From Thermoplasmata archaeon (lineage in GTDB: Archaea; Thermoplasmatota; Thermoplasmata; Lutacidiplasmatales; UBA184), in the NCBI GenBank assembly GCA_035502455.1, contig DATJUI010000015.1, positions 50,249-114,248 of the forward strand: a DNA stretch of 64,000 nucleotides, in the 5' to 3' direction. Positions within the stretch are counted from its first letter, which is position 1. Each line of letters begins with the position of its first letter. Below the pieces are notes generated by a model. It was not told the origin of the DNA. It ran no database searches and saw only the letters and a program-made list of their open reading frames with translations. Both the position numbers and the translations under genes were made by a program. This document shows positions 2,176-64,000 of this stretch, piece after piece.

Positions 2176-3342
2176 ATGCCCGCGGTGAAGGTGACCACAC
2201 GGACCCGACGCCCGGCCGGCGCGAAGCGCGAGATGAAGCGGGGCCCGGACACGGCGCGGATCGCCGTCGTCGGGATCCCGGCCTCGGGCAAGACGACGTA
2301 CTTCAGGTTCCTCTCGGGGCATTTCGGGCTCAACCTGCCGATCCTGTACATCCCGGCCCGGGTCGACAACGGGACGATGCCGCTGTACGGGGACCTCGAG
2401 AACGACGTCGCGCTCGAGGAGACGACGTACGAGACGACCGACCCCACCGACCCCGAGGGGAGCCTCGAGACGACGACCCGGTACTACGTCAATCGGCCGA
2501 TGGAGGACCGGCGCAAGCTGTGGGTCGAGCTCTCGGCGGGCCGGGAGGACCAGGGGATCCTCACGAAGTACCCGCTGCCGACCAAGTTCAACCAGTTCGT
2601 CGAGATGAAGCTCCGCTTCCGCTACGGGGCCGCCGACGGCGACGCCGGCTCGCGGCCGATGGAGCTGCAGACGATCGACGAGGCGGGCGGGATCATCGCC
2701 GACTACTTCACCTACGATCGGCTCTGGCTCGACTCGACCGACGCCGAGGTCTCCGAGAAGTCGTGCCGGGTGATCCCGCACTTCGACTCGTGGCGCCCCG
2801 ACCGCCGGGACCTCTGGCGCCGCGGGCTCACCCTGCTGGGACGGTTCGTCCAGGAGGCCGACGCGATCATCCTCCTGCTCGCCCCCGGGCTCCCGTCGCT
2901 GCGCGACCAGGCCCAGCAGGTCAACCTCGCCCGCGGCGTGTTCCGGTACGTCCGGGCCCGCAACCTCCCGCTCGTCATCGCGATCTCGAAGTCGGACAAG
3001 CTCAACGAGTTCTACGGCGAGGTCGAGCAGTCCGTGCGGGACCGCACGTTCCGCAGCGCGTTCGATCCCGTCGACTTCCTGCTCCGGCGCGACGGGGCCG
3101 GGATGGGCACGATCCTCGTCGCCCAGGAAGGGCGGGGGATCTCGGTGAAGGAGGACGTCTACCTGATCGCGTCCGCGGTCTCGACCGGCGAAGGGCACCC
3201 GCTGTTCATCGGCGAGACCGGTCAGGAGGCGCCGACGTCCGGCACGACCACGCTGGGGGTCCCCGTGATGGTCAACACGACCCTGCCGCTCGCGCGCGCC
3301 TGCGAGCGGATCCTCGCGCTCCGCGCGACCAAGGGGTCGTGA
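2176..3342 (+). CDS. Divergent Ras-like small GTPase (P-loop NTPase) with a long insertion between G1 and G3
   Basis: G1 GIPASGKTT, G3 IDEAGG (DxxG), G4 AISKSDK (NKxD variant SKSD) and G5 ASAV in canonical order. It starts 10 nt after the vWA gene, and its stop overlaps the next start (ATGA). Confidence 0.7.
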   Translation: MPAVKVTTRTRRPAGAKREMKRGPDTARIAVVGIPASGKTTYFRFLSGHFGLNLPILYIPARVDNGTMPLYGDLENDVALEETTYETTDPTDPEGSLETTTRYYVNRPMEDRRKLWVELSAGREDQGILTKYPLPTKFNQFVEMKLRFRYGAADGDAGSRPMELQTIDEAGGIIADYFTYDRLWLDSTDAEVSEKSCRVIPHFDSWRPDRRDLWRRGLTLLGRFVQEADAIILLLAPGLPSLRDQAQQVNLARGVFRYVRARNLPLVIAISKSDKLNEFYGEVEQSVRDRTFRSAFDPVDFLLRRDGAGMGTILVAQEGRGISVKEDVYLIASAVSTGEGHPLFIGETGQEAPTSGTTTLGVPVMVNTTLPLARACERILALRATKGS

Positions 3343-18629: not shown

Positions 18630-18661
18630 ACAACGGACTCTGTATCGAGTTCGATATATAA
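18628..18661 (-). promoter_or_regulatory. padR promoter: TATA box (18654-18661) plus dyad ATACA-N8-TGTAT (18628-18645) overlapping the start codon
   Basis: TTATATAT island 25-32 nt upstream of the ATG, and a perfect 5-nt inverted repeat with an 8-nt spacer, the spacing typical of PadR operators (ATGT-N8-ACAT class). Confidence 0.4.
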
Positions 18662-18826
18662 CTCCTCACTGAACCCCGATGGACGGGATGGGCCGACGGG
18701 CGCCCCGCCGGTCCCGGTCGGTCCTCGCCGCGCCGCAGGAGCCCCGGGGAGGGGGGCCCCGCGGACGCTCGCCCCCCGGTAAACCATTAACGGAGCGGGC
18801 CCCTCGAACCGGACGGTCGATCCCCC

Positions 18827-21595
18827 GTGTTCCGCCGGAACCGTTCGCCCCTCCGCGTCGTCGACGGCCCGCGTCGGGGTCTCCGCGGCGCGGTCGCCGC
18901 GCTCGTGGTACTGCTCGTCGTCCTCGGCGGATGGCCCGCGCTGGCCGAGGGGCTCCCGTCGGGCGGATCGCCAGCTGCACCGGCGAGCGCTCCCGGTCCC
19001 TCGGCGCTGTGCGCGGCGCCCGGGTCGCGCGAGGCCCCTTCCGCTCCCGGGCCGAGCTGTCCCGCCGTGGGCCCGGCGGCCCCGGGAGCCTCGGGCGACC
19101 CCTCGGGCCAGCACGTCTCGTGGGCGCAGCTGCCCGGCGCACCGGTCGGCGTCGGACAGGGCACGGGGATGGCCGCCGATGCCGCGGGCGCGGAAGCGGT
19201 CGTGTTCGGCGGGAACGTTTCGGGCGCGCTCTCCAACACCACGCAGGTCTACGACGAGGCGATCGCGAGCTGGTCGACCGTGGCGACGACGCACGCGCCC
19301 TCCCCCCGCAGCGACTTCGGCTTCGCCACCAACGACTCGGCGCGGCTGGCGGTGCTGTTCGGGGGGGTCGTGGACCTCGCCTCCCGGGCCGTCGACAACT
19401 CCACCTGGCTGTTCGACTTCGGGTCGAACACCTGGACGAACGTCTCGGGGCCAGTGGCCCCCCCCGCGCGCGCGGATCCCGCGCTCGCGGTCGATCCGAG
19501 CTCCGACCTCGCGCTCCTGTACGGCGGGTGGGACCAGGACTACCGGTCGAGCGGCACCCTCACGTTCGGCGATCTATGGGCGTTCAACTTCTCGACGGAC
19601 GCCTGGACGCAGTGGCAGCCCAGCGGCCCGAGCCCTCCTCCGCTCGAGGGGGCGTCCTTCGGCTGGGACTCTCAGAGCGGGACGTTCCTCCTGTACGGGG
19701 GCTGCTACCCGTGCAGCTCCACGGTCTGGCAGCTCGATCCGGTCTCGCGGACCTGGTCGGTGGTCTCCCCCGCGGACGCGGCCCCGACGCCGCGCGCGCA
19801 GAGCGCCGTCGCCTGGAATCCGATCGACAGTGCGCTGACCGTGTTCGGCGGGACGAACGGCGCCGTCGCCTTCAACGACACCTGGGAGTTCGCCCCCGCG
19901 ACCGGCAACTGGACCGCCGAGGCGGCGGGGACCGCCCCGGCGGCGCGATGGAGCGCCGCGTCCGCCTGGCTGAACGTCCCGGGCAATCAGACCCTCCTGA
20001 TGACGGGAGGGACCGGGGCCGGCACGCTCCCGAACGCACTGTGGCGGCTCGCCCCGACGGCGAACCTGACCCTGCTCGTCGAGAACGCCTCGAGCGGGCT
20101 GCCCGTCGCCTCCGCGAAGGTCGTCCTGGGGAGCGGTCCGGCCGCATCGACCAACGCGTCCGGCTACCTCAACCTCACGGCCGTCACGGCCAACGAGACG
20201 ACCGTCAATGTCTCGCACATCGGGTTCGCGGACAGCCAACGGTCGTTCTGGATCGCCCCCGACTCCACCGCCTTCGAGCAGTTCCTGCTCTCCCCCGTGC
20301 CCGACGGCAACGTGAGCGTGCGGATCGTCAACGAGTCCGGTGCCCCGGTCGCGGGCGCCGCCGTGAGCCTTCGGATCGCCGGCGCGTACCTCCCGGACTC
20401 GAACGGGACGTCCGACCTCCAAGGGTACGTGAGCTACCCGAACGTCCCGAGCGGGGTCCCCGCGCCGACGGGCGTCGTCACCGCGTCGGGCCCGGGCAGC
20501 TACTCGAACTCAACGGCGTTCGTGCTCCCCCCCGGGGCCCGCGTCTCCGTCGTCGTCGTGCTCGTGTCGTACCCCCGGCTGGTGATCCAGGTGACCGGGG
20601 CGCTCGCGAACCTTCAGCTGGCCGACGTCGCGCACGCCAACATCAGCGAGAACGACCTGTTGCTGGGCTCCACCGACGCGGCGGGCTGGCTCAACGCCAC
20701 CTCGATCCTGCCCGGCGGAACGGTCCAGCTCGCGATCGTCGCCGAGGGGTTCTCGGTCCTGGGGAGCAAGATCGTCCTGCCGCACTCGGGCACCCTCAAC
20801 GAGTCGTATCGGCTCTCCGGGCTCGAGTTCGGCCGGATCGCGGTCGCGGTCGACGACGGCTCGACGGGCGACCCGATCGGCGGGGCGACGGTGGCGGCGA
20901 CCGCCGACCCGTCCGTGTCGAGCGTCGCGTACACCGACTCGCACCCGACGACCGACGCGGGGTCGGTCACGCTGAGCGTGCCGCAGGGCGCCTACTGGGT
21001 CAACGTCTCTTCGTACGGCTACTATCCGGACGACATCGGACCGGTCTGGGTGCCCTCGGCCGGCACGGTGAGCCTCGGCGCGAACCTCTCGCTCGAACCG
21101 GGGGCGAACGTGAGCGTCTTCGTCCGGGTCTACCACCACGGGCCGCCGGTCGTCGGGGCCCGGGTGCTGGCCGGGGCCGCCCTGCCGGTCAACACCTCCG
21201 ACACGGGGTGGGCGAACTTCACGGACCTTCGCTTCGGGCCGACGCTCGTGAACGTGACCGCGGTCGGCTTCCTGCCCAACGAGACGCTCGTCGTGCTCGC
21301 GCCGTTCGAGACGATCTCGGAGTACCTCGTGAACCTCACCCCGGCGCCCCTCGTCCCGGGCCACACGTCGAACGGGACGTACGCGTACGGCGGGGTCCTG
21401 CCGACCCTCGCGGCGCTCCCGGCGTACCTCGTCCTGCTCGCGCTCGCCGTCGGGGGCGCGCTCGTCTTCCTGCTGTATTTGCGGATCGACCGGGGCGCCG
21501 CCCCGGACGATCTCCCGCCGCCGCCGTTCGAAGGGGCCGGCCCCGGGCCCGCCGCGGCGCCGGAGGCACCGGGCGAGGCGCCGGGGCCGCCCTAG
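18827..21595 (+). CDS. Secreted Kelch-repeat (beta-propeller) surface protein with tandem Ig/PEGA-like domains and a C-terminal TM anchor
   Basis: Signal peptide; repeated ...LFGG/LYGG...W...propeller blades (VLFGGVVD, LLYGGWDQ, LLYGGCYP, TVFGGTNG); about 45 N-x-S/T sequons; C-terminal TM helix plus Pro-rich tail. GTG start. Confidence 0.75.
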   Translation: MFRRNRSPLRVVDGPRRGLRGAVAALVVLLVVLGGWPALAEGLPSGGSPAAPASAPGPSALCAAPGSREAPSAPGPSCPAVGPAAPGASGDPSGQHVSWAQLPGAPVGVGQGTGMAADAAGAEAVVFGGNVSGALSNTTQVYDEAIASWSTVATTHAPSPRSDFGFATNDSARLAVLFGGVVDLASRAVDNSTWLFDFGSNTWTNVSGPVAPPARADPALAVDPSSDLALLYGGWDQDYRSSGTLTFGDLWAFNFSTDAWTQWQPSGPSPPPLEGASFGWDSQSGTFLLYGGCYPCSSTVWQLDPVSRTWSVVSPADAAPTPRAQSAVAWNPIDSALTVFGGTNGAVAFNDTWEFAPATGNWTAEAAGTAPAARWSAASAWLNVPGNQTLLMTGGTGAGTLPNALWRLAPTANLTLLVENASSGLPVASAKVVLGSGPAASTNASGYLNLTAVTANETTVNVSHIGFADSQRSFWIAPDSTAFEQFLLSPVPDGNVSVRIVNESGAPVAGAAVSLRIAGAYLPDSNGTSDLQGYVSYPNVPSGVPAPTGVVTASGPGSYSNSTAFVLPPGARVSVVVVLVSYPRLVIQVTGALANLQLADVAHANISENDLLLGSTDAAGWLNATSILPGGTVQLAIVAEGFSVLGSKIVLPHSGTLNESYRLSGLEFGRIAVAVDDGSTGDPIGGATVAATADPSVSSVAYTDSHPTTDAGSVTLSVPQGAYWVNVSSYGYYPDDIGPVWVPSAGTVSLGANLSLEPGANVSVFVRVYHHGPPVVGARVLAGAALPVNTSDTGWANFTDLRFGPTLVNVTAVGFLPNETLVVLAPFETISEYLVNLTPAPLVPGHTSNGTYAYGGVLPTLAALPAYLVLLALAVGGALVFLLYLRIDRGAAPDDLPPPPFEGAGPGPAAAPEAPGEAPGPP

Positions 21596-54591: not shown

Positions 54592-56040
54592 ATGCACCGG
54601 TTCACCGTCTACGACACGATGGCCCGGGCGCCGCGGGCGTTCGCGCCCCTCGTCCCGCCGTACGTCCGGATGTACGTCTGCGGGCTCACCCCGTACGCGG
54701 AGGCCCACATCGGGCACGGCCGGTTCGCGGTCGTCTTCGACATCGTCGCCCGCGCCCTGCGGCACTGGGGGTACCGGGTGCTCTACGTCCAGAACATCAC
54801 CAACCTCGACGACAAGCTGATCGCCCGGGCCGCCGAGCACGACGACGAGCCGCTCGCGCTCGCGGACCGGAACGCCGCCGAGTGGTTCCGCCTGATGGAC
54901 CGGCTCGGGGTGCGGTCGGTCGACGTCTACCCGTTCGCGACCGACTTCGTGCCCGAGATCCTCGCCCAGACCGCGCGGCTCGTGGAGCGGGGGTTCGCGT
55001 ACGTCGCCCGCGACGGCTCGGTGTACTTCCGGGTCGCGAAGTTCCCGGCGTACGGCCGACTCTCGGGGCAGCGGGTCGAGGCGCTCCAGCCCGGCGCCCG
55101 CGTCGAGATCGACGCGCGCAAGGAGGCGCCGGAGGACTTCGTGATCTGGAAGGCGGCGACGCCGGGCGAACCGAGCTGGGAGAGCCCGTGGGGCCCCGGC
55201 CGGCCGGGCTGGCACATCGAGGACACGGCGATGACCCTGCGGCTGTTCGGGGACCAGTACGACCTGCACGGCGGCGGCCTCGACCTCCTGTTCCCCCACC
55301 ACGAGGCCGAGATCGCCCTCGCCGAGTCGACGACGGGCGTGTCGCCGCTGGTCCGCTACTGGGTGCACAACGGTCTCCTGACGATGAACGGCGAGAAGAT
55401 GTCGAAGTCGATCGGCAACGTCTCGTCGCTCGCGGGGGCGATCGAGACGTACGGCGCGATGGTCGTGCGGTTCTTCTACGCGAACGCCCACTACCGCAGC
55501 CCGCTCGAGTTCCGCCCCGAGACGAGCCTCACCGAGGCGCGCGAGGCGTACCGTCGGCTCGCGGGGCCGGCCGAGCGGATCGCGGAGCTGCGGGCCGCCG
55601 GCGGCGACGACCGCCCCGGCCGCGACCTCCCCCCGACGCTCGCGCTCGAGGCCGAGCGGACGGTCGAGTCGCTCGACGCCGCGCTCGCGGACGACTTCAA
55701 CACCCGCGAGGCGATCGCGCAGCTGTTCGGCTGGGGGCGGCGCCTCGCGGAGGAGCTGCCGCGGCTCGCCGAGTACTCGGGGGAGGCGCTCGCGGAGCTG
55801 GACGCCCCGTACGTCTGGGGGCGCGAGGTGCTCGGGCTGTTCGAACGGCCCGGGGGCGGACCGTCCGGCGCGCTCGCGCGCATCGTCCCGGTCCTGCTCG
55901 ACGCCCGCGCCCGGGCCCGGGCGCGGGGCGACTACGCGGAGGCGGACCGGATCCGCGACGAGCTCCGCGCCGCGGGCGTCGAGATCGAGGACGACGCTTC
56001 GGCGACGCGCTGGCGCCTCGTCGAAACGGGCGGCGGGTGA
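54592..56040 (+). CDS. cysS: Cysteinyl-tRNA synthetase
   Basis: HIGH motif (PYAEAHIGHGR), KMSKS, and zinc-binding Cys in MYVCG. Confidence 0.9.
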   Translation: MHRFTVYDTMARAPRAFAPLVPPYVRMYVCGLTPYAEAHIGHGRFAVVFDIVARALRHWGYRVLYVQNITNLDDKLIARAAEHDDEPLALADRNAAEWFRLMDRLGVRSVDVYPFATDFVPEILAQTARLVERGFAYVARDGSVYFRVAKFPAYGRLSGQRVEALQPGARVEIDARKEAPEDFVIWKAATPGEPSWESPWGPGRPGWHIEDTAMTLRLFGDQYDLHGGGLDLLFPHHEAEIALAESTTGVSPLVRYWVHNGLLTMNGEKMSKSIGNVSSLAGAIETYGAMVVRFFYANAHYRSPLEFRPETSLTEAREAYRRLAGPAERIAELRAAGGDDRPGRDLPPTLALEAERTVESLDAALADDFNTREAIAQLFGWGRRLAEELPRLAEYSGEALAELDAPYVWGREVLGLFERPGGGPSGALARIVPVLLDARARARARGDYAEADRIRDELRAAGVEIEDDASATRWRLVETGGG

Positions 56041-56041
56041 C

Positions 56042-57082
56042 GTGCGCGGCTTCGGGTTCGCGGAGCACGGCGGGCTCGACCGCCTCGCCTACGTGGAGGT
56101 GCCCGAGCCCGTGGCGGGTCCAGGCGAGGTGCGCGTGCGCGTGGGCGCCTCCGCCTTCAACCGGCTCGACCGGTTCACCCTCGCCGGGATCCCGGGCGTT
56201 CCCGTGGAGCGGCCGCACGTGCTGGGCTCCGACGGGGCCGGATCCGTCGATGCGGTCGGCGACGGGGTGACAGGCTGGTCGCCGGGCGACCGGGTGCTCC
56301 TCAATCCGGGACTCTGGGACGGCACCTGCGACGAGTGCCGCGCGGGGCGCGAGGCGCTCTGCCGCTCGTTCCGGATCGTCGGCGAGCACACCCAGGGGAC
56401 CGCGGCGCCGTACGTCGTCGTGCCGGCGCGCAACGTCCACCGGCTGCCCGCCGGCTGGAGCTTCGCCCAGGGCGCCGCCGTGCCGCTCGTGTTCCAGACC
56501 GCATGGCGGGCGCTCGCCTCCGTGGGCGAGGTCGCGGCCGGCGAGCGCGTCGCGATCGTCGGGGCCGGCGGGGGGGTCCCGACGGCCGCCGTCCAGGTGG
56601 CGAAGCTGCTCGGGGCGCGGGTCGTGGTCGCGGCGCGCGGAACGGCCAAGGAAGCGCGGGTGCGGGCGCTCGGCGCGGACGACTTCGTCACCTTCGACGA
56701 AGAGCATCCGCTCGATCGCGTGCTCTGGCAGTGGAGCGAGAAGCGCGGCGTCGACGTCATCTTCGACTCGGTCGGGACGCCGACGGTGCCGCGGTCGCTG
56801 AAGGCGATCGGGCGCGGGGGTCGGATCGTCGTGATCGGGGCGACGGCCGGGCCCGTCGCCGAGGTCGATCTCCGCACCCTGTTCTGGCGTCAGGCGTCGA
56901 TCCGGGGCAGCACGATGGCGAACGCCGCCGAGTTCGCGACGGTGCTCGGCCACCTCGCGGCCGGCCGGCTCCGACCGGTGATCGACACCGCGTTCCCGTT
57001 CGACCGCGCTGCGGAGGCGTTCCGCCGGTTCGACGCCCCCGAGCTGTTCGGCAAGATCGTGCTGGAGCTGCCGGCCCCGTAG
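56042..57082 (+). CDS. Zinc-type alcohol dehydrogenase / quinone oxidoreductase (MDR superfamily)
   Basis: PGEVRVRVGASAFNRLD, the cofactor site VAIVGAGGGVPTAAVQVAKLLGARVV. GTG start 2 nt after cysS. Confidence 0.8.
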   Translation: MRGFGFAEHGGLDRLAYVEVPEPVAGPGEVRVRVGASAFNRLDRFTLAGIPGVPVERPHVLGSDGAGSVDAVGDGVTGWSPGDRVLLNPGLWDGTCDECRAGREALCRSFRIVGEHTQGTAAPYVVVPARNVHRLPAGWSFAQGAAVPLVFQTAWRALASVGEVAAGERVAIVGAGGGVPTAAVQVAKLLGARVVVAARGTAKEARVRALGADDFVTFDEEHPLDRVLWQWSEKRGVDVIFDSVGTPTVPRSLKAIGRGGRIVVIGATAGPVAEVDLRTLFWRQASIRGSTMANAAEFATVLGHLAAGRLRPVIDTAFPFDRAAEAFRRFDAPELFGKIVLELPAP

Positions 57083-57130
57083 CGCACCGCCGGAGAATCG
57101 CCGCCGGCGGCGGCCCTTCGAAGAAGGTCA

Positions 57131-57140
57131 TTTTTAAATA
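57131..57140 (+). promoter_or_regulatory. Strong TATA box (TTTTTAAATA) upstream of the giant surface protein gene
   Basis: The longest pure-AT run in the window, 25-34 nt upstream of the ATG at 57165. Confidence 0.5.
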
Positions 57141-57164
57141 CAGGGACTCCGCCTTTCTTCGGTC

Positions 57165-60100
57165 GTGAACCGTTCTTTGGGCCAGCCCTCGTCGACCGGG
57201 GGACCGGTGCTCTGGGACCGTCGATCGACCCGAGGAGCCGTCGTGGCCCTCGTGATCCTGTGCGTCGTGATGGGCGGGATCGCCGGCGTCGCGACCGCGA
57301 CCCACGCGGCCCCCGCGGCCGCGCCGGCTCCGCGCGGCGCCTCGGCCGTGCCGCTCGCCCCGGCCGTCACGAACGGCGACCTCAACGTCACGGGCACGGC
57401 GCCCTACATCATCGGACCGTCCCAGGGGCACGGGACCTACTACCAGGGAGGGAACATCACCGTCCAGCCCGGCGCGACCCTCATCGTCCGCAACACGACG
57501 CTCTCCTTCGTCCAGTACATCGGCTCTCAGGGCTCGATCCCCGAGCGCCTTTCGCACATTTACCGGTTCGTCGACCTCGGGACCGTCGAGTTCTACAACT
57601 CCACCCTCACGACGTTCACGCAGGTCCTCAACCTCTCGGCGAAGCTGTTCGTCTCCGTCACGGGCACGTGGACGGCGTGGAACAGCTCCTTCGAGTTCCC
57701 GGGCTGGTTCAACGTGGCCGGGGCCGGCGCCGTCGCGACGTTCAACGACTCGGCCATCGAGGCGAACCCGGCGATCCCGTTGCTCCCCGAGCCGGCGACC
57801 CTCGTCGGCGACACGGAGTACGCCCCGGTCCTCAACGTCTCGGCCGAAGGCGAGCTCAACCTGTTCGGCAGCTCCTACACCCAGCTCTACGCCGACAACT
57901 GGACGACGAACGGCCAGCCGACGATCCAGCCGCTCGACTACGCGCCCGTTGGCGGCATTGCGATCCCCGTGGCGGGCGTGAACGTGTCGGGCGTGGCGCT
58001 CACCTCGCAGCTCGTCGCGAACTCGACGCAGCTCGCCGAGGACATGCTCTACCCCGCCCAGGCGAGCTCGCTCGTCCTGGCGGTCGACTACACGAGCTCC
58101 AGCGGGACCGCGCAGACCTCCACGATCTACGCCTGGTACGACGGGGCCCGCTACGAGGTCGGCGTCGCCACGTTCGCGGCGGGCACCTCGGCCCAGCTGA
58201 CGTTCCCGCTCGGCGAGGGCTCTGCCCTCGTGCAGGCGATGGCGCGCACGGGCGTGCCGTTCTACGCGCTCGACGACCTCCAGTTCGCCGCGCCGAGCGG
58301 CACCGGCGTCACCCTCAACTCGATCGACGCCACGATGACCCCCGCGCCGAACTTCAACATCACCGCCTACGACCCCGGCGCGACGATCAACGTCGTCGGC
58401 TCCACCCTCGGGCTCAACTGGACCCCGACGATCGCCCAGACGACGATCGCGCCGTGGGAGTCGAACAAGATGGTCGTCACCGACTCCGCGCGCGCCTACC
58501 TCGCCGCGATGTCCGTGCCGTCCGTGATCCCGCAGGTCTCCAGCACCTCGGCGGTCCTCACCACGGACAACGGCGCTGCCGCGTTCTACCGGTGGGCTCA
58601 GTTCAACCTCACGGGGAAGGGCGGGTACCTGCCGATCGACGGGGCGCAGGTCGTCGCCTACCCCGGTCTCAACGCGAGCCAGGGCGCGAACGCGACCGCG
58701 ACCGAGCTCAACGCGCTCGCGACGACGGTGCCGGCGATCTGGCACTATGTCGAGTACCTCGACGCCTCCGCCGGCGCCCCCGGGTACGGGGAGTCGGGCC
58801 GCTCGGGGATCGCGTCGCTCCTCCTCGCCGCCGGTTACCTCGTCGAGCCGACGCTGCCGAACGGCAACTACACGGGCAGCTACCACGTCGGCATCACGAT
58901 CCCGACGCCCACGCCGGCGACCTCCTGGTTCAACTGGACCGTGACCCCCTACCCCGCCGGCGTCGCGAACGGCACGGTCGGCTACGGCACGGCGGACTTC
59001 GCGCCGCCCCAGACGTTCCCGTCGTACTTCGCGTCGATCGGCGTCGCGACGAGCGCGGTGACGTCGAACGGCACCGCCCTCGTGAACAACACCGTCGACG
59101 ACTACCGCGTGCTCGGGATCAACCTCACGATCACGGCGACCGGGACCGCGGACATCTTCAACCTCACGGGGAACCTGAGCTACGGCGGGTCCCCGCCGAT
59201 CGGGATCGCGTCGTTCCCGTTCACGAACGTCACGCTCGCGCCGGGGGCCTCGACCTCGATCCTGTTCACCTGGCTCGTGAACACGAGCGTGACGGGGCTC
59301 CAGGGCTCGGTGAACCACGCGTTCGACGCGACGATCGTCTATAACGGCGGGAGCGCGAAGTACGGCGGCGGCAACGTCTCCCACACGACGCTCGTGAGCA
59401 TCTCGCCGTACGTCGCCCACCTCGCGCCGACGTTCGTCCTCACGGGCAACGGCACCCTGCTGCCGAACAACGACACCGTCCGGATCGGCCAGCGGCTGGG
59501 CGTCAACGTGACCCTCGCCTTCAGCGGGGCCGCGACCGTGACGAGCATCTACGCGGCCGTGTACTACGGCAACACCAACGCCACGACGAAGCCGCTCGGC
59601 ACGTACAACGCGACGCACCTCGCGCTCGACACGCCCGGCGCGACCGTCGCGTTCCAGGTCGACTGGGTCGTGAACGACACGACGGTCGGGCTGCAGACGA
59701 AGACGATCGCCACGAACCTCTACCTGACCCTCGTCTGGAACAACGCCCAGACCGCCGTCGGGGGCAACACCTCGCGGACCGCCGAGCCGATGAACGTCGC
59801 GCCGTCCCAGGTCCGGTTCGTCTCGTTCAACCCGCCGCCCACGACCCTCTCGCTCTCGGGTTCCTACGAGTCGAGCGGGTTCGTCCAGTACAACGGGTCG
59901 GAGTACGCGACGATCACCGTCTCGGCGACCCCCCTGAGCGGCGGGCCGTCGGTCGATGTCGCCTACGGCCTCGCGGGTCCGGACCCGCACGGCGGCCCGG
60001 TCGACTTCGTCGTCGGCTGGAGCACGCTGAGCGGCATCCTGTCGCCGGGGACGACGTACACGCTCACGGCGAACATCTCCTACAACGGGGTCTACCAGGA

Positions 60101-60926
60101 CTATGTCGTGCCGGGCCAGTACTCGGTACCGCCCTCGAGCTCGCCGACGACGGGCATCCTGTTCGAGAAGTTCCTCGGTCTTCCCCTCTGGATCTGGCTC
60201 GCCATCGCGGCCGCGATCGTGGTCGCGATCGTCGCGCTCCTGCTCGTCTCCCGCCGCTCGGCGGCCGGGCGGCTCGTCGAGTGCGGGGAGTGCGGCAACC
60301 TGATCCCCGAGGACGCGACGGTCTGCCCGAAGTGCGGGGCCGAGTTCGAATCGGACCTGATCCGCTGCAGTCGATGCGCCTCCACGATCCCCGCGAACTC
60401 GAAGTTCTGCCCCGAGTGCGCCGCGCAGCTGCTGGGCAAGGCCGGCGAGGGCGGCGAAGAGGCGGAGCGCCAGGGCTACGCGGACTTCACCGAGAAGTAC
60501 CGGGCCGAGGCGAAGCGGGAGCTCGGCGAGAACTACACCGAGGGCTCGTTCTGGGACTGGTGGAAGCGCCAGCCGTCGTACGTCTCCTACAGCCAGTGGA
60601 AGCTCCAGCAGGGCGGCACCTCCCGCGTGGGGATGAGCGCCCCGCCGAGCGGCACCGAGACGAACCCGGCCGCGGCCCCGGGCGCGACCCCGGCAGCCCC
60701 CTCGCCGCCCACCCTGCCGCCGAAGGGCGGCGCGGGCGGCGCGGCCGCCGCGCCGGCGGCCGGCCCGATGACGCCCCCGCCCGCCGCGCCCCCGAAGGCG
60801 GGGGCGCCGCCGCCCGCCGGTGCGGCCGCCCCGAGCGGCGGGGCGCTCAAGCCGTGCCCGAACTGCGGCAACGAGATCCCGCCCGAGTACCTCGTCTGTC
60901 CGTTCTGCGGATCGGTGACGCAGTAG
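57165..60926 (+). CDS. Giant (1253 aa) surface glycoprotein candidate with a C-terminal TM anchor and a cytoplasmic double zinc-ribbon tail
   Basis: Signal/anchor segment; ~1000 aa rich in N-x-S/T sequons and Thr/Ser/Asn/Gly/Val with beta-helix-like repeats (NITVQPGATLIVRNTTLSF); TM helix LWIWLAIAAAIVVAIVALLLV; cytoplasmic CGECGN...CPKCGA...CSRCAS...CPECAA; a Pro/Ala-rich segment; final CPNCGN...CPFCGS. Confidence 0.8.
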   Translation: MNRSLGQPSSTGGPVLWDRRSTRGAVVALVILCVVMGGIAGVATATHAAPAAAPAPRGASAVPLAPAVTNGDLNVTGTAPYIIGPSQGHGTYYQGGNITVQPGATLIVRNTTLSFVQYIGSQGSIPERLSHIYRFVDLGTVEFYNSTLTTFTQVLNLSAKLFVSVTGTWTAWNSSFEFPGWFNVAGAGAVATFNDSAIEANPAIPLLPEPATLVGDTEYAPVLNVSAEGELNLFGSSYTQLYADNWTTNGQPTIQPLDYAPVGGIAIPVAGVNVSGVALTSQLVANSTQLAEDMLYPAQASSLVLAVDYTSSSGTAQTSTIYAWYDGARYEVGVATFAAGTSAQLTFPLGEGSALVQAMARTGVPFYALDDLQFAAPSGTGVTLNSIDATMTPAPNFNITAYDPGATINVVGSTLGLNWTPTIAQTTIAPWESNKMVVTDSARAYLAAMSVPSVIPQVSSTSAVLTTDNGAAAFYRWAQFNLTGKGGYLPIDGAQVVAYPGLNASQGANATATELNALATTVPAIWHYVEYLDASAGAPGYGESGRSGIASLLLAAGYLVEPTLPNGNYTGSYHVGITIPTPTPATSWFNWTVTPYPAGVANGTVGYGTADFAPPQTFPSYFASIGVATSAVTSNGTALVNNTVDDYRVLGINLTITATGTADIFNLTGNLSYGGSPPIGIASFPFTNVTLAPGASTSILFTWLVNTSVTGLQGSVNHAFDATIVYNGGSAKYGGGNVSHTTLVSISPYVAHLAPTFVLTGNGTLLPNNDTVRIGQRLGVNVTLAFSGAATVTSIYAAVYYGNTNATTKPLGTYNATHLALDTPGATVAFQVDWVVNDTTVGLQTKTIATNLYLTLVWNNAQTAVGGNTSRTAEPMNVAPSQVRFVSFNPPPTTLSLSGSYESSGFVQYNGSEYATITVSATPLSGGPSVDVAYGLAGPDPHGGPVDFVVGWSTLSGILSPGTTYTLTANISYNGVYQDYVVPGQYSVPPSSSPTTGILFEKFLGLPLWIWLAIAAAIVVAIVALLLVSRRSAAGRLVECGECGNLIPEDATVCPKCGAEFESDLIRCSRCASTIPANSKFCPECAAQLLGKAGEGGEEAERQGYADFTEKYRAEAKRELGENYTEGSFWDWWKRQPSYVSYSQWKLQQGGTSRVGMSAPPSGTETNPAAAPGATPAAPSPPTLPPKGGAGGAAAAPAAGPMTPPPAAPPKAGAPPPAGAAAPSGGALKPCPNCGNEIPPEYLVCPFCGSVTQ

Positions 60927-60963
60927 GCGGCCCGCGGCCCCGGGACCCGCTCCTTCCGCGCAC

Positions 60964-60971
60964 CTTTATCC
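60964..60971 (+). promoter_or_regulatory. TATA box (CTTTATCC) upstream of ahcY
   Basis: 26-33 nt upstream of the ATG at 60997. Confidence 0.4.
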
Positions 60972-60996
60972 CGCGGCCGGCTTCCGCCGGACGCCG

Positions 60997-62229
60997 ATGC
61001 CGGGCGATCTCGAGCGGGGCCGCCAAAAGGTCGCCTGGGCCGAGGGGCACATGCCGGTCCTCGCCGGCATCCGTCGTCGGTTCGAGGCGGAGCGCCCGTT
61101 CGCCGGCCTCACGGTCTCGATGGTCCTCCACGTCGAGGCGAAGACCGCCGCGCTCGCGCTCGCCGTCCGCGCGGGCGGCGCCGACGTCCGCCTGGCCGCC
61201 GGCAACCCGCTCTCGACCGACGACGACGCCGTCGCTGCCCTGCGGGCGGCCGGCGTCGAGACCCTCGCGGAGAAAGGGGAGTCGCTCGCCGCGTACCGGG
61301 CCGGCATCGAGGCGATGCTCGCCGCCGACCCGGACGTGATCGTCGACGACGGCGCCGACCTGGTCGCCCTCGTCCACACGCGTCGGCACGACCGCGGCAA
61401 GATCCGGGGATCGACGGAGGAGACGACCACGGGCGTGACCCGGTTGAAGGCGCTCGAGCGCGAGGGCCGCCTGCTCTTCCCGGCGATCGACGTCAACGAC
61501 GCCCGGATGAAGCACCTGTTCGACAACCGCTACGGGACGGGCCAGTCGACGCTGGACGGGATCCTCGCGGCGACGAACCTGCTCGTGGCCGGCCGGACCT
61601 GCGTCGTCGCGGGGTACGGCTGGTGCGGCAAGGGGGTCGCCTCGCGCCTCCGCGGCCTCGGGGCCGACGTCGTGGTGACCGAGATCCAGCCGATCCCCGC
61701 GTTCGAGGCGCGCATGGACGGCTTTCGCGTGATGCCGATGCTCGACGCCGCCGCGATCGCCGACCTCATCGTGACCGTGACGGGGAGCGTGGACGTCGTC
61801 CGCGAGCCGCACCTGAGGGTCCTCAAGGACGGCTGCCTGCTCGCGAACGCCGGCCACTTCGACGTCGAGGTCTCGAAGCGCGACCTCGCCGGGCTCGCGG
61901 TCCAGCGCGCGATCGCGCGGCCAAACGTCGAGGAGTACCGGTTCGCCGACGGGCGGCGGGCGTACCTGCTCGGCGACGGCCGCCTCATCAACCTCGCCGC
62001 CGGCCAGGGCCACCCGGTCGAGATCATGGACCTCTCGTTCTCCCTGCAGGCGCTCAGCGCGGAGCACCTCGCGAAGCACGGACCGTCGATGGCCGCGAAG
62101 GTCCACGCCGTCCCGGACGCCCTCGACCTCGCGGTCGCGCGGGCCGCGATGCCGAGCCTGGGGGTCCGGCTCGACGAGCCGACCGAGGCGCAGCTGCGCT
62201 ACGCCGCGAGCTGGGAGGGAGGAACCTGA
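60997..62229 (+). CDS. ahcY: Adenosylhomocysteinase (S-adenosyl-L-homocysteine hydrolase)
   Basis: N-terminal KVAWAEGHMPVL, NAD-binding GYGWCGKGVA, HFDVE. Confidence 0.9.
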   Translation: MPGDLERGRQKVAWAEGHMPVLAGIRRRFEAERPFAGLTVSMVLHVEAKTAALALAVRAGGADVRLAAGNPLSTDDDAVAALRAAGVETLAEKGESLAAYRAGIEAMLAADPDVIVDDGADLVALVHTRRHDRGKIRGSTEETTTGVTRLKALEREGRLLFPAIDVNDARMKHLFDNRYGTGQSTLDGILAATNLLVAGRTCVVAGYGWCGKGVASRLRGLGADVVVTEIQPIPAFEARMDGFRVMPMLDAAAIADLIVTVTGSVDVVREPHLRVLKDGCLLANAGHFDVEVSKRDLAGLAVQRAIARPNVEEYRFADGRRAYLLGDGRLINLAAGQGHPVEIMDLSFSLQALSAEHLAKHGPSMAAKVHAVPDALDLAVARAAMPSLGVRLDEPTEAQLRYAASWEGGT

Positions 62230-62624
62230 TGGAGACGTCGAAGGCACCGGACGACCGGAAGTACACGAAGTCGCACGAGTGGGTCCAGCTGGACGGCGAC
62301 CGCGCGACGGTCGGGATCACCGACCACGCCCAGGGCGAGCTCACCGACATCGTGTTCGTCGACCTGCCCGCGCCCGGGAAGTCGTACGCCGCCGGGGCGA
62401 GCGTGCTCGTGCTCGAGTCGGTGAAGACGGTCGCCGACGTCTACGCGCCCGGCGAGGGAACGCTCGAGGCGGCGAACCCCGACCTCAAGTCGCACCCCGA
62501 GTACATCAACCAGGACCCGTACGGCAAGGGCTGGGTCTTTAGGCTCCGCCTCACGCAACCGATCGATCCGGCGACGCTGCTCGACGCGGCCGGCTACCTC
62601 GCGTTCGTCGCCGGCGGGGGTTAG
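62229..62624 (+). CDS. gcvH: Glycine cleavage system H protein (lipoyl carrier)
   Basis: YTKSHEWVQLDGDRATVGITDHAQ and the lipoyl-lysine motif ESVKTV. The ATG overlaps the ahcY stop (TGATG). Confidence 0.85.
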   Translation: METSKAPDDRKYTKSHEWVQLDGDRATVGITDHAQGELTDIVFVDLPAPGKSYAAGASVLVLESVKTVADVYAPGEGTLEAANPDLKSHPEYINQDPYGKGWVFRLRLTQPIDPATLLDAAGYLAFVAGGG

Positions 62625-62626
62625 GG

Positions 62627-64000
62627 CTACTTCCCCTCGAACTTCGGCGGCCGCCGCTCGAGGAAGGCGCGCATCCCCTCGGTCCGGTCCGACGTCCCGA
62701 ACGTCTGGCCCGCCGAGACCCCTTCCAGGTGGAGCGCACCGGCGAGCGACGCGTCGATCCCCTGGTCGATCACCTTCTTCACCCAGCGGACCCCGAGCGG
62801 CGCCCGGCTCGCGATCGTCGTCGCGAGCGCCCGGGTCTCCGCGCGGGCCGTCGCGGCGGGGTAGACCTTCACCACGAACCCCATCCGGTACGCCTCCTCG
62901 GCGGAGACCGGCACGCCCGTGTACGTCAGCAGCTTCGTGCGGGCGCGGCCGATGATCCGGCCGAGCCGGGTCGCGCCGCCCATCCCGGGATGGATGCCGA
63001 CCGTGACCTCGGGGAGGCCGAGCTGCGCGCCCTCGGCCGCGACGATGAAGTCCGCCGCGAGGGCGAGCTCGAGGCCGCCGCCGAGCGCGTACCCCTCGAC
63101 GAGCGCGATCACCGGCGCGGGGAACCGCTCGACCCGCTCGGCGACCCGCTGGCCGACGAAGCCGAAGTCGATCCCCTCGGCGAGCGTCTTGCGCTCCATC
63201 TCGGCGATGTCGGCGCCGGCCGCGAACACCGGCGACGAGCCGGCGAGGACCACGACCCGCACGCCGTGGTCGTGCTCGAGCGAGCGGAACGCGGCGTCGA
63301 TCTGCTCGAGGAGCTCGCTGTTGAGCGAGTTCAGCACCTCGGGTCGATCGAGCAGGACCCAGGCGATCGGTCCGTCGCGCTCGACCCGCACGAGGCGCAG
63401 CGGCCAGCTCCGCTCCCCCCGGGCGGCCCGCTCGCGCAACGACTGGGAGACGGGGAAGTTGCCCGGCCACCGGTGCGCGTACGCCTCGACGAGGGCCAAT
63501 CCCTCGGGAACGCCGATCTGGGAGAGCTGGGCGAACGGACCGACGGACCGTCGCAGCCCGACGACCGCCCCCCGATCGACCGCTTCCGGCGTCGCCACGC
63601 CCTCCTCGACGAGGCGGGTCGCGATGCCCAGCGTCAGCCCGAGCAGCCGGTCCCGGACGGCCGCCTTCTGGGCCGGGTCGACCTCGGTCGTCCGCCACGG
63701 CCACGGCTGCCCGGCCCGGAACTGCTGCTCGAGGAGCCGGGCGGGGGCGTAGGCCGGGCCGAACGACCGGTAGAGCGAGCTCTCGGCGTGGAAGGCGATC
63801 GGGATGCCGGTGACGTTCATCAGCTCGAACGGCCCGAGCGAGGCGCCGAACGTCTCCCGCCCGACCTCCTCGATCGTCGCGAGGCTGGCGACCCCCTCCT
63901 CCGCGAGCCGGGCCGCCTCGTTGAGGTACGGCACGAAGTAGCGGTTGACGCAGAACCCGGCGGCATCGAGCGTCCGGATCGGGATCTTGCGGAGCAGGAA
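62627..64000 (-). CDS. 3-hydroxyacyl-CoA dehydrogenase / enoyl-CoA hydratase fusion protein; its N-terminal part lies past the window end
   Basis: The window-proximal part carries the 3HCDH C-terminal domain (GFCVNRYFVPYLNEAARLAEEG, the in-frame translation continues past 63934 to the window end) followed by the crotonase fold (VVLAGSSPVFAAGADI, ALVEGYALGGGLELALAAD). Confidence 0.8.
   Translation of the reverse strand, partial: FLLRKIPIRTLDAAGFCVNRYFVPYLNEAARLAEEGVASLATIEEVGRETFGASLGPFELMNVTGIPIAFHAESSLYRSFGPAYAPARLLEQQFRAGQPWPWRTTEVDPAQKAAVRDRLLGLTLGIATRLVEEGVATPEAVDRGAVVGLRRSVGPFAQLSQIGVPEGLALVEAYAHRWPGNFPVSQSLRERAARGERSWPLRLVRVERDGPIAWVLLDRPEVLNSLNSELLEQIDAAFRSLEHDHGVRVVVLAGSSPVFAAGADIAEMERKTLAEGIDFGFVGQRVAERVERFPAPVIALVEGYALGGGLELALAADFIVAAEGAQLGLPEVTVGIHPGMGGATRLGRIIGRARTKLLTYTGVPVSAEEAYRMGFVVKVYPAATARAETRALATTIASRAPLGVRWVKKVIDQGIDASLAGALHLEGVSAGQTFGTSDRTEGMRAFLERRPPKFEGK

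Follow-up and report, generated by a model that had tools for sequence, protein, structure and literature searches.

A putative surface N-glycoprotein of Thermoplasmata archaea with a conserved cytoplasmic zinc-ribbon module

The window, i.e., the whole 64-kb stretch of DNA analysed here, contains a gene for a large protein with a signal-like N-terminus, a predicted ectodomain, one transmembrane (TM) helix and a tail that carries three zinc ribbons. The features of the locus are:

57124..57164, + strand: archaeal promoter, with a purine-rich BRE-like stretch, a TATA box and a 25-nt spacer reaching the GTG
57129-57139, + strand: TATA box ATTTTTAAATA, ~25 nt upstream of the GTG
57165..60926, + strand: coding sequence, GTG start, 1253 aa plus stop, uninterrupted open reading frame (ORF)
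57165..57308, + strand: N-terminal signal-like segment, aa 1-48 (hydropathy)
57360..59024, + strand: ectodomain head, aa ~66-620 (AlphaFold2 (AF2) model, conservation)
59025..59819, + strand: tandem pair of Ig-like domains of a divergent CARDB type, aa 621-752 and 753-885 (self-alignment, AF2 β-sandwich)
59820..60152, + strand: membrane-proximal β-sandwich, aa 886-985, then a Ser/Pro/Thr-rich stalk, aa 986-996, SVPPSSSPTTG (AF2, composition)
60171..60254, + strand: single TM helix, aa 1003-1030, LGLPLWIWLAIAAAIVVAIVALLLV (hydropathy, AF2 helix)
60276..60428, + strand: double zinc ribbon, aa 1038-1088, CGEC..CPKC and CSRC..CPEC (Pfam DZR, AF2 β-hairpins)
60459..60614, + strand: three-helix Trp-rich domain, aa 1099-1150, unannotated (AF2, conservation)
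60624..60848, + strand: Pro/Ala/Gly-rich disordered linker, aa 1154-1228, ~70 aa (AF2 pLDDT 45-58, composition)
60849..60923, + strand: third, C-terminal zinc ribbon, aa 1229-1253, CPNC..CPFC (best Zn_Ribbon_1 stretch 1231-1250)

In-frame GC3 stays at 0.90-1.00 in each 100-codon block of the ORF and gives no hint of a frameshift. The fear that two genes had been joined by an undetected frameshift is thus dispelled, also by the six-CxxC architecture that is common to 108 of the 118 aligned sequences (the window protein and 117 homologs). The identical protein (100 %) in a public ENA assembly, P0001, is called from a start 26 codons downstream; the position of the TATA box agrees with the longer start, GTG 57165. 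This box had been singled out as the best in the window, and it does stand out, since the 64 kb contain just three decamers that reach 9/10 A+T or more, ATTTTTAAATA among them. A TTAAATA-type box and its spacer (consensus GAACCCGGCCTTTCTTCGGTC) are kept in ~30 orthologous loci. Because the conserved 25-nt spacer runs up to the GTG, a leaderless or nearly leaderless mRNA is implied. The promoter is, as judged from these features, strong-looking and conserved.

Relatives are encoded in 170 candidate stretches of species-representative genomes (soil and peat MAGs). Nearly all the listed loci (77 of 78) are titled Thermoplasmata or Thermoplasmatales archaeon, and the carriers probably belong to UBA184/Lutacidiplasmatales (TMEG). 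The order CysRS-ADH-gene-SAHH-GcvH-ECH recurs in nearly every locus that retains flanking sequence, and the gene reads as a single-copy ortholog at a fixed locus. Its neighbours are housekeeping enzymes, with no candidate-partner gene among them. At the same loci, identity is 65-83 % for the flanking enzymes but 35-50 % for the ectodomain, which points to the fast evolution typical of exposed proteins.

Hydropathy gives two hydrophobic segments, at ~aa 21-49 and ~aa 1003-1030. The first lies in the signal-like segment, which has a basic n-region (DRRSTRG), a hydrophobic core at aa 24-46 and a putative cleavage site between ATHA and A. Most full-length homologs also have a hydrophobic N-terminus, in a region that is poorly conserved (18 % identity). 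As expected of an archaeal S-layer glycoprotein, the N-terminus is signal-like, and the bulk of the protein is predicted to be extracellular. The second segment, 63 % conserved, is the TM helix, and SRRSAAGR comes next. Across the 117 homologs, Lys and Arg average 0.77 per 15 aa before the helix and 3.09 after it, in keeping with the positive-inside rule. Asparagine sequons (N-x-S/T) number 36 in aa 61-1000, against 11.5±3.0 expected from composition-preserving shuffles (z ~8), and the tail of the window protein has one only; in the homologs their density is 3.28 per 100 aa outside and 0.38 per 100 aa in the tail, and the median for the family is 3.3 per 100 aa. Such enrichment would amount to a dense N-glycosylation signature outside the cell. 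Cys is absent from aa 61-1000, and all 12 tail Cys lie within six CxxC motifs (at 1040, 1054, 1068, 1082, 1231 and 1245). Because of the charge asymmetry, the sequon asymmetry and a Cys-free ectodomain with C4 sites in the tail, a type-I topology with the zinc ribbons inside is supported. The cytoplasmic ribbons of the original prediction are thereby supported, and its single TM helix agrees with the hydropathy and the AF2 model. The ectodomain before the helix comes to ~950 aa and not the ~1000 it had proposed. A PGF-CTERM/archaeosortase substrate was considered and rejected: no PGF motif was found before the helix (…FEKFLGLPLWIW…), and ~220 residues come after it instead of a short basic tail.

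The AF2 model of the ectodomain (m47dd849791ee) has a mean pLDDT of 89.3 and a pTM of 0.72. Its head shows short β-strands at regular spacing with GNITV/NSTLTT/NxS-type repeats (β-helix-like), together with inserted β-sandwiches and one helical insert. The head has no Pfam match. It is conserved better than the rest of the ectodomain (43-49 % identity at aa 61-250 and 421-620), and its motifs are found even in distant CARDB-rich relatives. The two Ig-like copies align with each other at 29 % identity (E 7e-10) and are, by this self-alignment, a tandem duplication. Alignment occupancy is 0.32 at aa 621-750; a copy number that differs among orthologs accounts for length classes of ~950, ~1100 and ~1250 aa. 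CARDB (PF07705) gave no match at E<=1 to the window protein in the Pfam search. It is detected in the homolog P0106 (23.6 bits, cut-off 22.7), below threshold in P0021 (18.5 bits) and at 1e-30 to 1e-61 in distant relatives. CARDB (COG1361) has been described as an 'S-layer domain' (PMC10354927). With Foldseek, the ectodomain matched only Ig-like domain arrays, including the H. volcanii S-layer protein (7ptp_A, E 4e-6), the Ig-like domains of integrin α chains, and PorU; with TM-scores of 0.1-0.2, these matches are generic. A β-sandwich/Ig-like array, as in archaeal S-layer glycoproteins, is seen in the AF2 model (pLDDT 89), in the Foldseek matches and through CARDB in homologs. The best reading has a putative β-helix-like head on a CARDB-like stalk. 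Haloarchaeal S-layer glycoproteins have an O-glycosylated stalk and, by analogy, we infer the same for the Ser/Pro/Thr stalk here.

The tail is conserved much better than the ectodomain. A double zinc ribbon had been proposed for it, and the DZR profile (PF12773) confirms this at 2e-11 and 44.3 bits (curated cut-off 27.3; aa 1040-1085). Zn_Ribbon_1 (PF13240) matches three stretches (2.9e-14, 52.8 bits, cut-off 25), and Zn_ribbon_3 and Zn_ribbon_15 likewise exceed their Pfam curated cut-offs. The ribbons have the CxxC...CxxC spacing with four Cys each and β-hairpin knuckles in the AF2 model, and on these profiles are bona fide DZR/Zn_Ribbon_1 members. Mean identity of the double ribbon to the 117 homologs is 87 %. 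In a set of 49 divergent family members, none of its eight Cys varies, nor do F1129 and W1132 in the three-helix domain. This domain (consensus YADFxEKYRAEAKxELGxNYxExxFWDWWKRQPSYxSYSQW; 72 % identity) is predicted as a compact bundle with pLDDT 92-97 and has no Pfam or PDB match; in the whole tail, nothing matched apart from generic zinc ribbons. The original layout, with ribbons flanking a Pro/Ala segment, is correct as far as it goes, but it overlooked the conserved three-helix domain before the linker and overstated the Pro/Ala/Gly-rich stretch, which is ~70 aa (1154-1228) rather than ~100. The linker is variable in length among homologs (33 % identity). The third ribbon, CPNC..CPFC, does follow it as described (Zn_Ribbon_1, 1231-1250); it ends the protein, is present in nearly all family members and has 77 % identity and an AF2 pLDDT of 85-89. 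Identity is 72-87 % in the structured parts of the tail versus 11-49 % in the ectodomain, and the tail is evidently under strong purifying selection.

We suggest, at somewhat better than even probability, that the gene encodes a putative major type-I surface N-glycoprotein of the S-layer type or glycocalyx, conserved and single-copy, in an uncultured soil archaeon of high GC content, and that its cytoplasmic module is an adaptor coupling the coat to a conserved intracellular partner. The surface-glycoprotein part is favoured because of the sequon enrichment, the fast evolution of the ectodomain, the Ig-like Foldseek matches and CARDB in homologs. The predicted extracellular part has a β-rich head, a CARDB-like Ig region of one to several domains and a stalk of Ser, Pro and Thr; it is free of Cys and dense in sequons throughout. 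The S-layer glycoprotein Csg of Haloferax volcanii (HVO_2072; 7ptp/7ptr) similarly combines an Ig-like β-sandwich array, heavy N-glycosylation (sequons in the window protein), a stalk near the membrane that is rich in Ser/Thr, and anchoring in the membrane at the C-terminus. In Csg there is a PGF-CTERM signal, with archaeosortase processing, a lipid anchor and essentially no cytoplasmic domain. In contrast, the window protein has no PGF motif, its TM helix leads into a structured tail of 220 aa, and its β-helix-like head has no counterpart in Csg. Surface-layer proteins of Methanosarcina contain β-helix, PKD and β-propeller domains (Jing et al. 2002, Structure 10:1453, in PMC10354927). Together with COG1361/CARDB proteins, they resemble the window family in joining a β-helix to Ig-like (PKD/CARDB) domains; they are not known to have a zinc-ribbon cytoplasmic module, and Pfam finds no sequence similarity for the head of the window protein.

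Instead of forming a lattice coat, the protein could be an adhesin or an integrin-like receptor, an unlikely alternative in which the head binds a mineral, a polymer or another cell and the module relays or stabilises the contact. Adhesins, too, are frequently built as a β-helix-like head with a stalk of Ig domains, integrin α chains and PorU are among the Foldseek matches, and distant relatives with the same tail, at 2000-3800 aa and with many CARDB repeats, look more like adhesins than S-layer subunits. However, a core structural protein fits better than an accessory adhesin with one copy per genome in a constant position, the occurrence in 170 candidate stretches and a promoter that looks strong and is conserved. 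In the Pfam search the tail also gave no match to a signalling domain such as a kinase, HAMP or PAS.

Given a surface glycoprotein, the tail probably ties the coat to an intracellular partner, and such a tie is not known for archaeal surface-layer proteins. Of the two roles first proposed for it, we infer 'anchoring or adaptor' over 'signalling'; nucleic-acid binding is unlikely since the ribbons are acidic. The module would act as a protein-binding adaptor linking the surface coat with a conserved partner in the cytoplasm. Its terminal ribbon, on the tether, would serve as a 'hook', and the ribbons next to the membrane, with the helices, would form the base. In architecture, the closest functional analogue is CdpC of Haloferax volcanii (HVO_0399), an FtsZ1 membrane anchor with a zinc ribbon, a linker that is disordered and, C-terminally, a C4 ribbon that binds FtsZ1 in a zinc-dependent manner; distant multi-zinc-ribbon relatives of CdpC are reported in all Thermoplasmatota classes (bioRxiv 10.64898/2026.07.16.738847). 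The window tail likewise ends in a disordered linker (1154-1228) and a C4 ribbon, CPNC..CPFC. CdpC differs in having an amphipathic N-terminal helix and a C3H first ribbon, a 243-aa linker (~70 aa here), no ectodomain and no three-helix Trp-rich domain. CdpC-type membrane attachment was thus rejected for the window protein, which has a TM helix and a C4+C4 double ribbon instead. Two further likenesses are functional only: Escherichia coli ZipA is a single-pass protein whose flexible Pro-rich tether reaches from the membrane to cytoskeletal filaments, and eukaryotic integrins, also single-pass, link the outside to such filaments through a short tail. To our knowledge, the cytoplasmic parts of ZipA and integrins are not homologous to the window tail, and ZipA lacks an ectodomain. 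By analogy with CdpC and ZipA, the most likely class of partner would be FtsZ or a similar component of the machinery for division or the cytoskeleton. At its most far-reaching, and doubtful as it stands, this would make the family a prokaryotic 'integrin-like' coupler across the sampled Thermoplasmatota, in which the tail ties the main coat glycoprotein to the FtsZ ring or another filament, the Trp-rich domain is a new interaction fold and the terminal ribbon is a CdpC-like FtsZ hook. If so, envelope growth and remodelling would be coordinated across the membrane with division and shape.

Conservation of the tail could instead mean self-association or packing at the membrane interface. A tail with no separate partner, in which the ribbons and Trp-rich helices oligomerise and/or rest on the inner membrane interface, holding the glycoprotein and spacing the ectodomains, seems to us rather improbable. 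The double ribbon does start 10-13 aa past the membrane in most family members checked, FWDWWKRQP is rich in interfacial aromatics, with a moderate hydrophobic moment (0.49) for its short helix, and conservation alone cannot tell self-binding from partner-binding. But a purely membrane-proximal anchor would hardly account for a long, variable, disordered tether with a strongly conserved end ribbon (77 %), and the three helices are predicted as a soluble bundle.

Pectate lyases and GH28 enzymes often have parallel β-helices, which could make the head a lyase or glycosidase and the protein a membrane-anchored extracellular carbohydrate-active enzyme. The lineage is described as organoheterotrophic with many glycoside hydrolases (PMC9287336). 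Nevertheless, this is a very improbable reading, as there is no Pfam/NCBIfam match to a CAZy-type family, even at E<=1, and the near-invariant ectodomain residues are mostly G, N, T and aromatics; Asp and Lys occur just twice each and Arg once among them, which is no typical catalytic constellation. An artefact, either a frameshift fusion or a spurious ORF, is effectively refuted: though long spurious ORFs are frequent in high-GC DNA and the public call is shorter, GC3 is high throughout, more than 100 homologs share the architecture end to end, the AF2 model is confident and the TATA spacing suits the long start.

The usual view of archaeal S-layer proteins is of an armour that is wholly external, with a lipid, a short helix or a stalk protein to hold it. 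For the main surface glycoprotein that we favour, a structured, strongly conserved cytoplasmic domain would connect the coat directly with the cell interior, mechanically or in its organisation. Such a link would matter for coat insertion and remodelling at the archaeal division site, and for the membrane anchoring of division or cytoskeletal filaments outside haloarchaea. The FWDWWKRQP three-helix bundle is an unannotated, confidently predicted domain, and the tail is compact and amenable to in vitro work without culturing the organism. Most described DZR/Zn_Ribbon_1 membrane proteins have N-terminal cytoplasmic ribbons before a TM helix and a small outer domain; here the ribbons lie at the C-terminal end of a giant glycoprotein, where a specific helical domain and a third ribbon join them. 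The combination had been called unusual, and so it is for an S-layer-like protein, but it is not the oddity of one genome, given the conserved ortholog and the recurrence of the module on other large surface proteins of Thermoplasmatota MAGs. At E<=1e-10, the TM-ribbons-helices module is found in 272 cluster representatives, always C-terminal and directly after the TM helix. These proteins have 900-3789 aa with CARDB repeats, and those with a named source are all from Thermoplasmatota MAGs; in distant relatives the third ribbon comes straight after the helical domain. It speaks against a coat that the UBA184/Lutacidiplasmatales lineage was named as a 'plasma', and we found no published description of its envelope in the literature. 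The family offers a candidate envelope protein for this abundant uncultured soil and peat group.

On alignment, the conserved part of the 1253-aa surface glycoprotein is its cytoplasmic tail, and this is our key result. Averaged over the homologs, identity to the window protein is 11-49% in the ectodomain segments, 63% in the TM helix, 87% in the double ribbon, 72% in the helical domain, 33% in the Pro/Ala linker and 77% in the terminal ribbon. In the same genomes, the flanking housekeeping enzymes are 60-87% identical, compared with 35-50% for the whole glycoprotein. Therefore, the outside of the protein is fast-evolving, as exposed proteins are, and its inside is as strictly conserved as a core enzyme. 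Strong purifying selection acts on the cytoplasmic module, which consists of three C4 zinc ribbons, a helical bundle and a flexible tether.

The tail begins after the TM helix with SRRSAAGR, followed by twelve cysteines, all in six CxxC motifs. Four Pfam profiles match above their curated cut-offs, i.e., Zn_Ribbon_1 (2.9e-14, three stretches), DZR (2e-11, residues 1040-1085), Zn_ribbon_3 and Zn_ribbon_15. By these profiles the ribbons are true DZR/Zn_Ribbon_1 members, in keeping with the double zinc ribbon of the original prediction. A model of the tail (pLDDT 77) has the TM helix and two zinc-ribbon hairpin pairs, and then the following parts.

Residues 1099-1150: three-helix bundle, compact, pLDDT 92-97
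After the three-helix bundle: disordered segment, pLDDT 45-58
After the disordered segment: third ribbon, pLDDT 85-89

The original prediction had overlooked a folded domain, also conserved, that separates the double ribbon from the Pro/Ala stretch. That stretch, first put at ~100 residues, has ~70 (1154-1228) and is disordered. Neither the three-helix bundle nor the whole tail has any likeness to solved structures beyond isolated zinc ribbons; a Foldseek search of the tail against the PDB returned only generic ones (ribosomal proteins, NZF/RanBP2 fingers, ArnA and PriA) at E>0.2. Nucleic-acid binding by the ribbons is unlikely, since they are net acidic (double ribbon, 6 K/R vs 8 D/E).

When residues 1036-1165 were searched exhaustively with phmmer against 1.84 billion cluster representatives, 1469 proteins matched at E <= 1e-3, 272 of them at E <= 1e-10. 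Obvious fragments aside, all of the 150 matches listed are large proteins (900-3789 aa) that carry the module close to the C-terminus. In most of the matches listed the double ribbon starts 10-13 residues past a strongly hydrophobic helix, and the third ribbon is almost always present. More distant carriers have several CARDB and CarboxypepD_reg domains. All carriers with a source name are MAGs of Thermoplasmata, 'Candidatus Thermoplasmatota' or 'Methanobacteriota/Euryarchaeota archaeon'. In 49 divergent members the eight double-ribbon cysteines, F1061, F1129 and W1132 are invariant, and all of these members can be recognised by the signature G[KR]xVECGECGxxIPE…CPKCGxEFE…CxxCGxxIP…CPECG…YxxYRxxAKxELGxxYxExxFxxWWKxQPxYxxFxxW, and the head motifs GNIT…GGxL…NSxxTT…FPG…YRW are also retained. 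With the 130-aa tail as query, a word-index search was uninformative, giving just 8 short fragments. The tail modules are plastic in evolution, both in order and in number, with the double ribbon and helical bundle fixed. In a distant group, the third ribbon directly follows the helical bundle and the low-complexity segment lies behind it; in the group of the window protein, the linker separates the two. Among the distant relatives P0118, P0162, P0165 and P0239, some have four tail ribbon units (P0118 has 8 CxxC), and some have a low-complexity Pro/Ala/Gln segment behind the third ribbon and then a basic tail end.

As a type-I membrane protein, the glycoprotein has a large β-rich ectodomain and a single TM helix. 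Hydropathy gives hydrophobic segments at residues ~21-49 and 1003-1030, and the ~950 residues between them hold no cysteine. In 117 homologs, mean Lys+Arg in the 15 residues flanking the TM helix rises from 0.77 before to 3.09 after, and sequon density is 3.28/100 aa N-terminal of the helix vs 0.38 in the tail. Because of these charge and sequon asymmetries, the Cys-free ectodomain and the C4 zinc sites, we place the ribbons in the cytoplasm; they are thus inside, as originally proposed, and not outside. The N-terminus gives no support in sequence for a Tat signal or a lipobox. The ectodomain has 36 N-x-S/T sequons, compared with 11.5±3.0 expected from composition-preserving shuffles, and is probably heavily N-glycosylated. 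Pfam finds nothing on it. AlphaFold2, run on residues 54-1002 with 117 homologs, gives a confident model (mean pLDDT 89.3, pTM 0.72) that is nearly all β and includes a stalk.

Stalk: three β-sandwich domains, the first two at residues 621-752 and 753-885 (AlphaFold2 model and alignment)

These first two domains arose by tandem duplication (29% identity, E 7e-10). Since the copy number of the duplicated domain differs between orthologs, they fall into length classes of ~950, ~1100 and ~1250 aa. In homologs, the stalk domains reach or approach the CARDB threshold. Foldseek matches of the ectodomain in the PDB are only generic Ig-like strings (mastigoneme, PorU, complement, integrin α and the Haloferax S-layer protein 7ptp, the last at E 4e-6), with TM-scores of 0.1-0.2. 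Sequence searches of the PDB gave nothing meaningful, whether the query was the protein or the family profile.

The G+C content of the window is 68-77%, and many long ORFs in such DNA are spurious. The gene and its promoter box are as follows.

57165-60926, + strand: ORF of the surface glycoprotein, GTG start, 1253 aa, placed as in the original prediction
57129-57139: AT-rich box ATTTTTAAATA, its end 25 nt before the GTG

Because third-position G+C is 0.90-1.00 in each 100-codon block from start to stop, the ORF is one coding frame. A hidden frameshift, fused genes and a spurious ORF are excluded. Only three decamers in the 64-kb window have A+T of at least 9/10, and ATTTTTAAATA is among them, so that the earlier remark on its TATA box holds. 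The 25-nt distance to the GTG is the geometry of a leaderless archaeal mRNA. A TTAAATA box and 25-nt spacer (consensus GAACCCGGCCTTTCTTCGGTC, then GTG) are kept across ~30 loci, and by this comparison the predicted promoter is conserved and consensus-like. In a public assembly the identical protein (P0001, 1227 aa) has its start called 26 codons further in, at 57243 and not 57165; the position of the TATA box, with a conserved GTG 25 nt downstream of it, supports the longer, leaderless start. The spacer itself (57140-57167 in the window; 5966-6003 in locus L001, for example) is strongly kept though the coding regions are only 35-50% identical, and this exceeds what a constraint on TATA-to-start distance alone would need. 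It may be a promoter-proximal element, an initiator element or a regulator site.

Database searches gave 118 relatives at E <= 1e-3, one being the identical protein from another assembly and the others 32-63% identical in the best local alignment. Those with a source name are always an uncultured 'Thermoplasmata archaeon', and no cultured organism is among them. In an alignment of the window protein with 117 of the 118, exactly six CxxC motifs are found in 108 of 118 sequences. The single TM helix and ~200-aa tail recur throughout, as does the Cys-poor, sequon-rich ectodomain (median 3.3 sequons/100 aa). One genome per prokaryotic species was scanned, and in these genomes 170 candidate stretches encode a relative. 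Among the 78 loci listed, all but one are titled Thermoplasmata or Thermoplasmatales archaeon, the exception being a TPA assembly titled 'bacterium'. The genomes are MAGs from soil, peat and the subsurface, UBA184 and UBA61 among them. UBA184 is a member of the order described as Lutacidiplasmatales, formerly the Terrestrial Miscellaneous Euryarchaeota Group, with a G+C of ~69% (PMC9287336). No relatives were found on viral contigs, and a profile search with 49 divergent full-length members returned mainly the same orthologs and spurious CARDB giants, with no cultured organism. Public labels of the relatives are 'zinc ribbon domain-containing protein', 'hypothetical protein' and a spurious 'RNA polymerase subunit RPABC4/Spt4'. 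JGI/IMG homologs (P0009, P0016 and P0170, for example) bear automatic names such as 'RNA polymerase subunit RPABC4/transcription elongation factor Spt4', 'ribosomal protein L40E' and 'subtilase family serine protease'; these arise artefactually from zinc-ribbon or CARDB matches, and the family is mislabelled by them. The surroundings of the gene were compared in loci L001-L078.

54592-63934: syntenic block of cysteinyl-tRNA synthetase, zinc-type alcohol dehydrogenase, the glycoprotein gene, S-adenosylhomocysteine hydrolase and GcvH, then enoyl-CoA hydratase/hydroxyacyl-CoA dehydrogenase on the opposite (minus) strand

Since nearly all loci with flanks have these neighbours in the same order, the gene is a vertically inherited single-copy ortholog, and it is a core gene. 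Some MAGs have two divergent copies (L050/L073 in DATJWA01, L040/L041 and L046/L075). Because L050 and L073, the one pair checked, both have the synthetase-dehydrogenase flank, these are probably mixed strains or species in bins and not paralogs.

We infer that the glycoprotein serves as the main surface-coat protein of its lineage, of S-layer type or glycocalyx, and that its tail works as a protein-binding adaptor. Relatives that are very long and rich in CARDB do look like adhesins, but an adhesin or receptor without a lattice is less probable here, as a core, single-copy ortholog at a fixed locus points to a structural role. It is also less probable that the tail is a self-contained anchor that needs no other partner, oligomerising or lying at the membrane interface; its Trp-rich motif and closeness to the membrane would permit this, but a conserved ribbon ends the variable tether. 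A membrane-anchored polysaccharide-degrading enzyme is unlikely, with no CAZy-type profile match on the protein in Pfam or NCBIfam and invariant ectodomain residues that are mainly Gly, Asn, Thr and aromatics. For the adaptor, the membrane-proximal base and the conserved ribbon on a ~70-residue Pro/Ala leash, ~20 nm if fully extended, suggest a tether design. By analogy, we favour a tether that would couple the surface coat to division or cytoskeletal machinery. The contents of the locus include no candidate partner gene, the window has no FtsZ signature, and the Lutacidiplasmatales paper and its supplements do not mention S-layer, FtsZ or ESCRT (PMC9287336).

Bacterial ZipA, with a TM helix, a Pro/Gln-rich tether and an FtsZ-binding domain, follows the same logic. 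The closest functional precedent is CdpC, the FtsZ1 membrane anchor of Haloferax volcanii; the authors of that study also describe distant relatives with several ribbons from every class of Thermoplasmatota (bioRxiv 10.64898/2026.07.16.738847). The ectodomain is of a known kind, i.e., archaeal surface glycoproteins of Ig-like/CARDB domains and β-helices, such as Haloferax Csg, Methanosarcina surface proteins (Jing et al. 2002) and the COG1361 'S-layer domain', the latter two as cited in PMC10354927. By its sequence, the protein falls outside the PGF-CTERM/archaeosortase substrates. Even in cultured Thermoplasmatales the S-layer gene is regarded as unidentified (PMC10354927). The novelty lies in the combination: giant surface glycoproteins bear at the C-terminus a cytoplasmic module that is phylum-level, structured and strongly conserved and that includes an unannotated three-helix Trp-rich domain. 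Full-text literature searches found no paper describing a giant surface glycoprotein with such a tail.

Other ORFs in the window are listed here.

18827-21595, + strand: second secreted, sequon-rich protein, 922 aa, 3.5 sequons/100 aa, Kelch β-propeller and CarboxypepD_reg
2520-6332, + strand: long ORF, 1270 aa
29535-32117, + strand: long ORF, 860 aa
49885-50631, - strand: small ORF, 248 aa
16452-16910, + strand: small ORF, 152 aa

The N-terminal signal region of the 922-aa protein is very like that of the glycoprotein, and the ORF begins ~170 nt downstream of an AT-rich box (18654-18663), another of the three decamers. As a Kelch/CarboxypepD_reg protein unrelated by BLASTP, it is not a paralog. 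The two long ORFs have a coding-like GC3 (0.86-0.87) and no Pfam match at E<=0.001. The two small ORFs, also without a Pfam match, have 3.2-3.3 sequons/100 aa, and the N-terminus of the 248-aa one is signal-like. By sequence, both may be further small surface glycoproteins.
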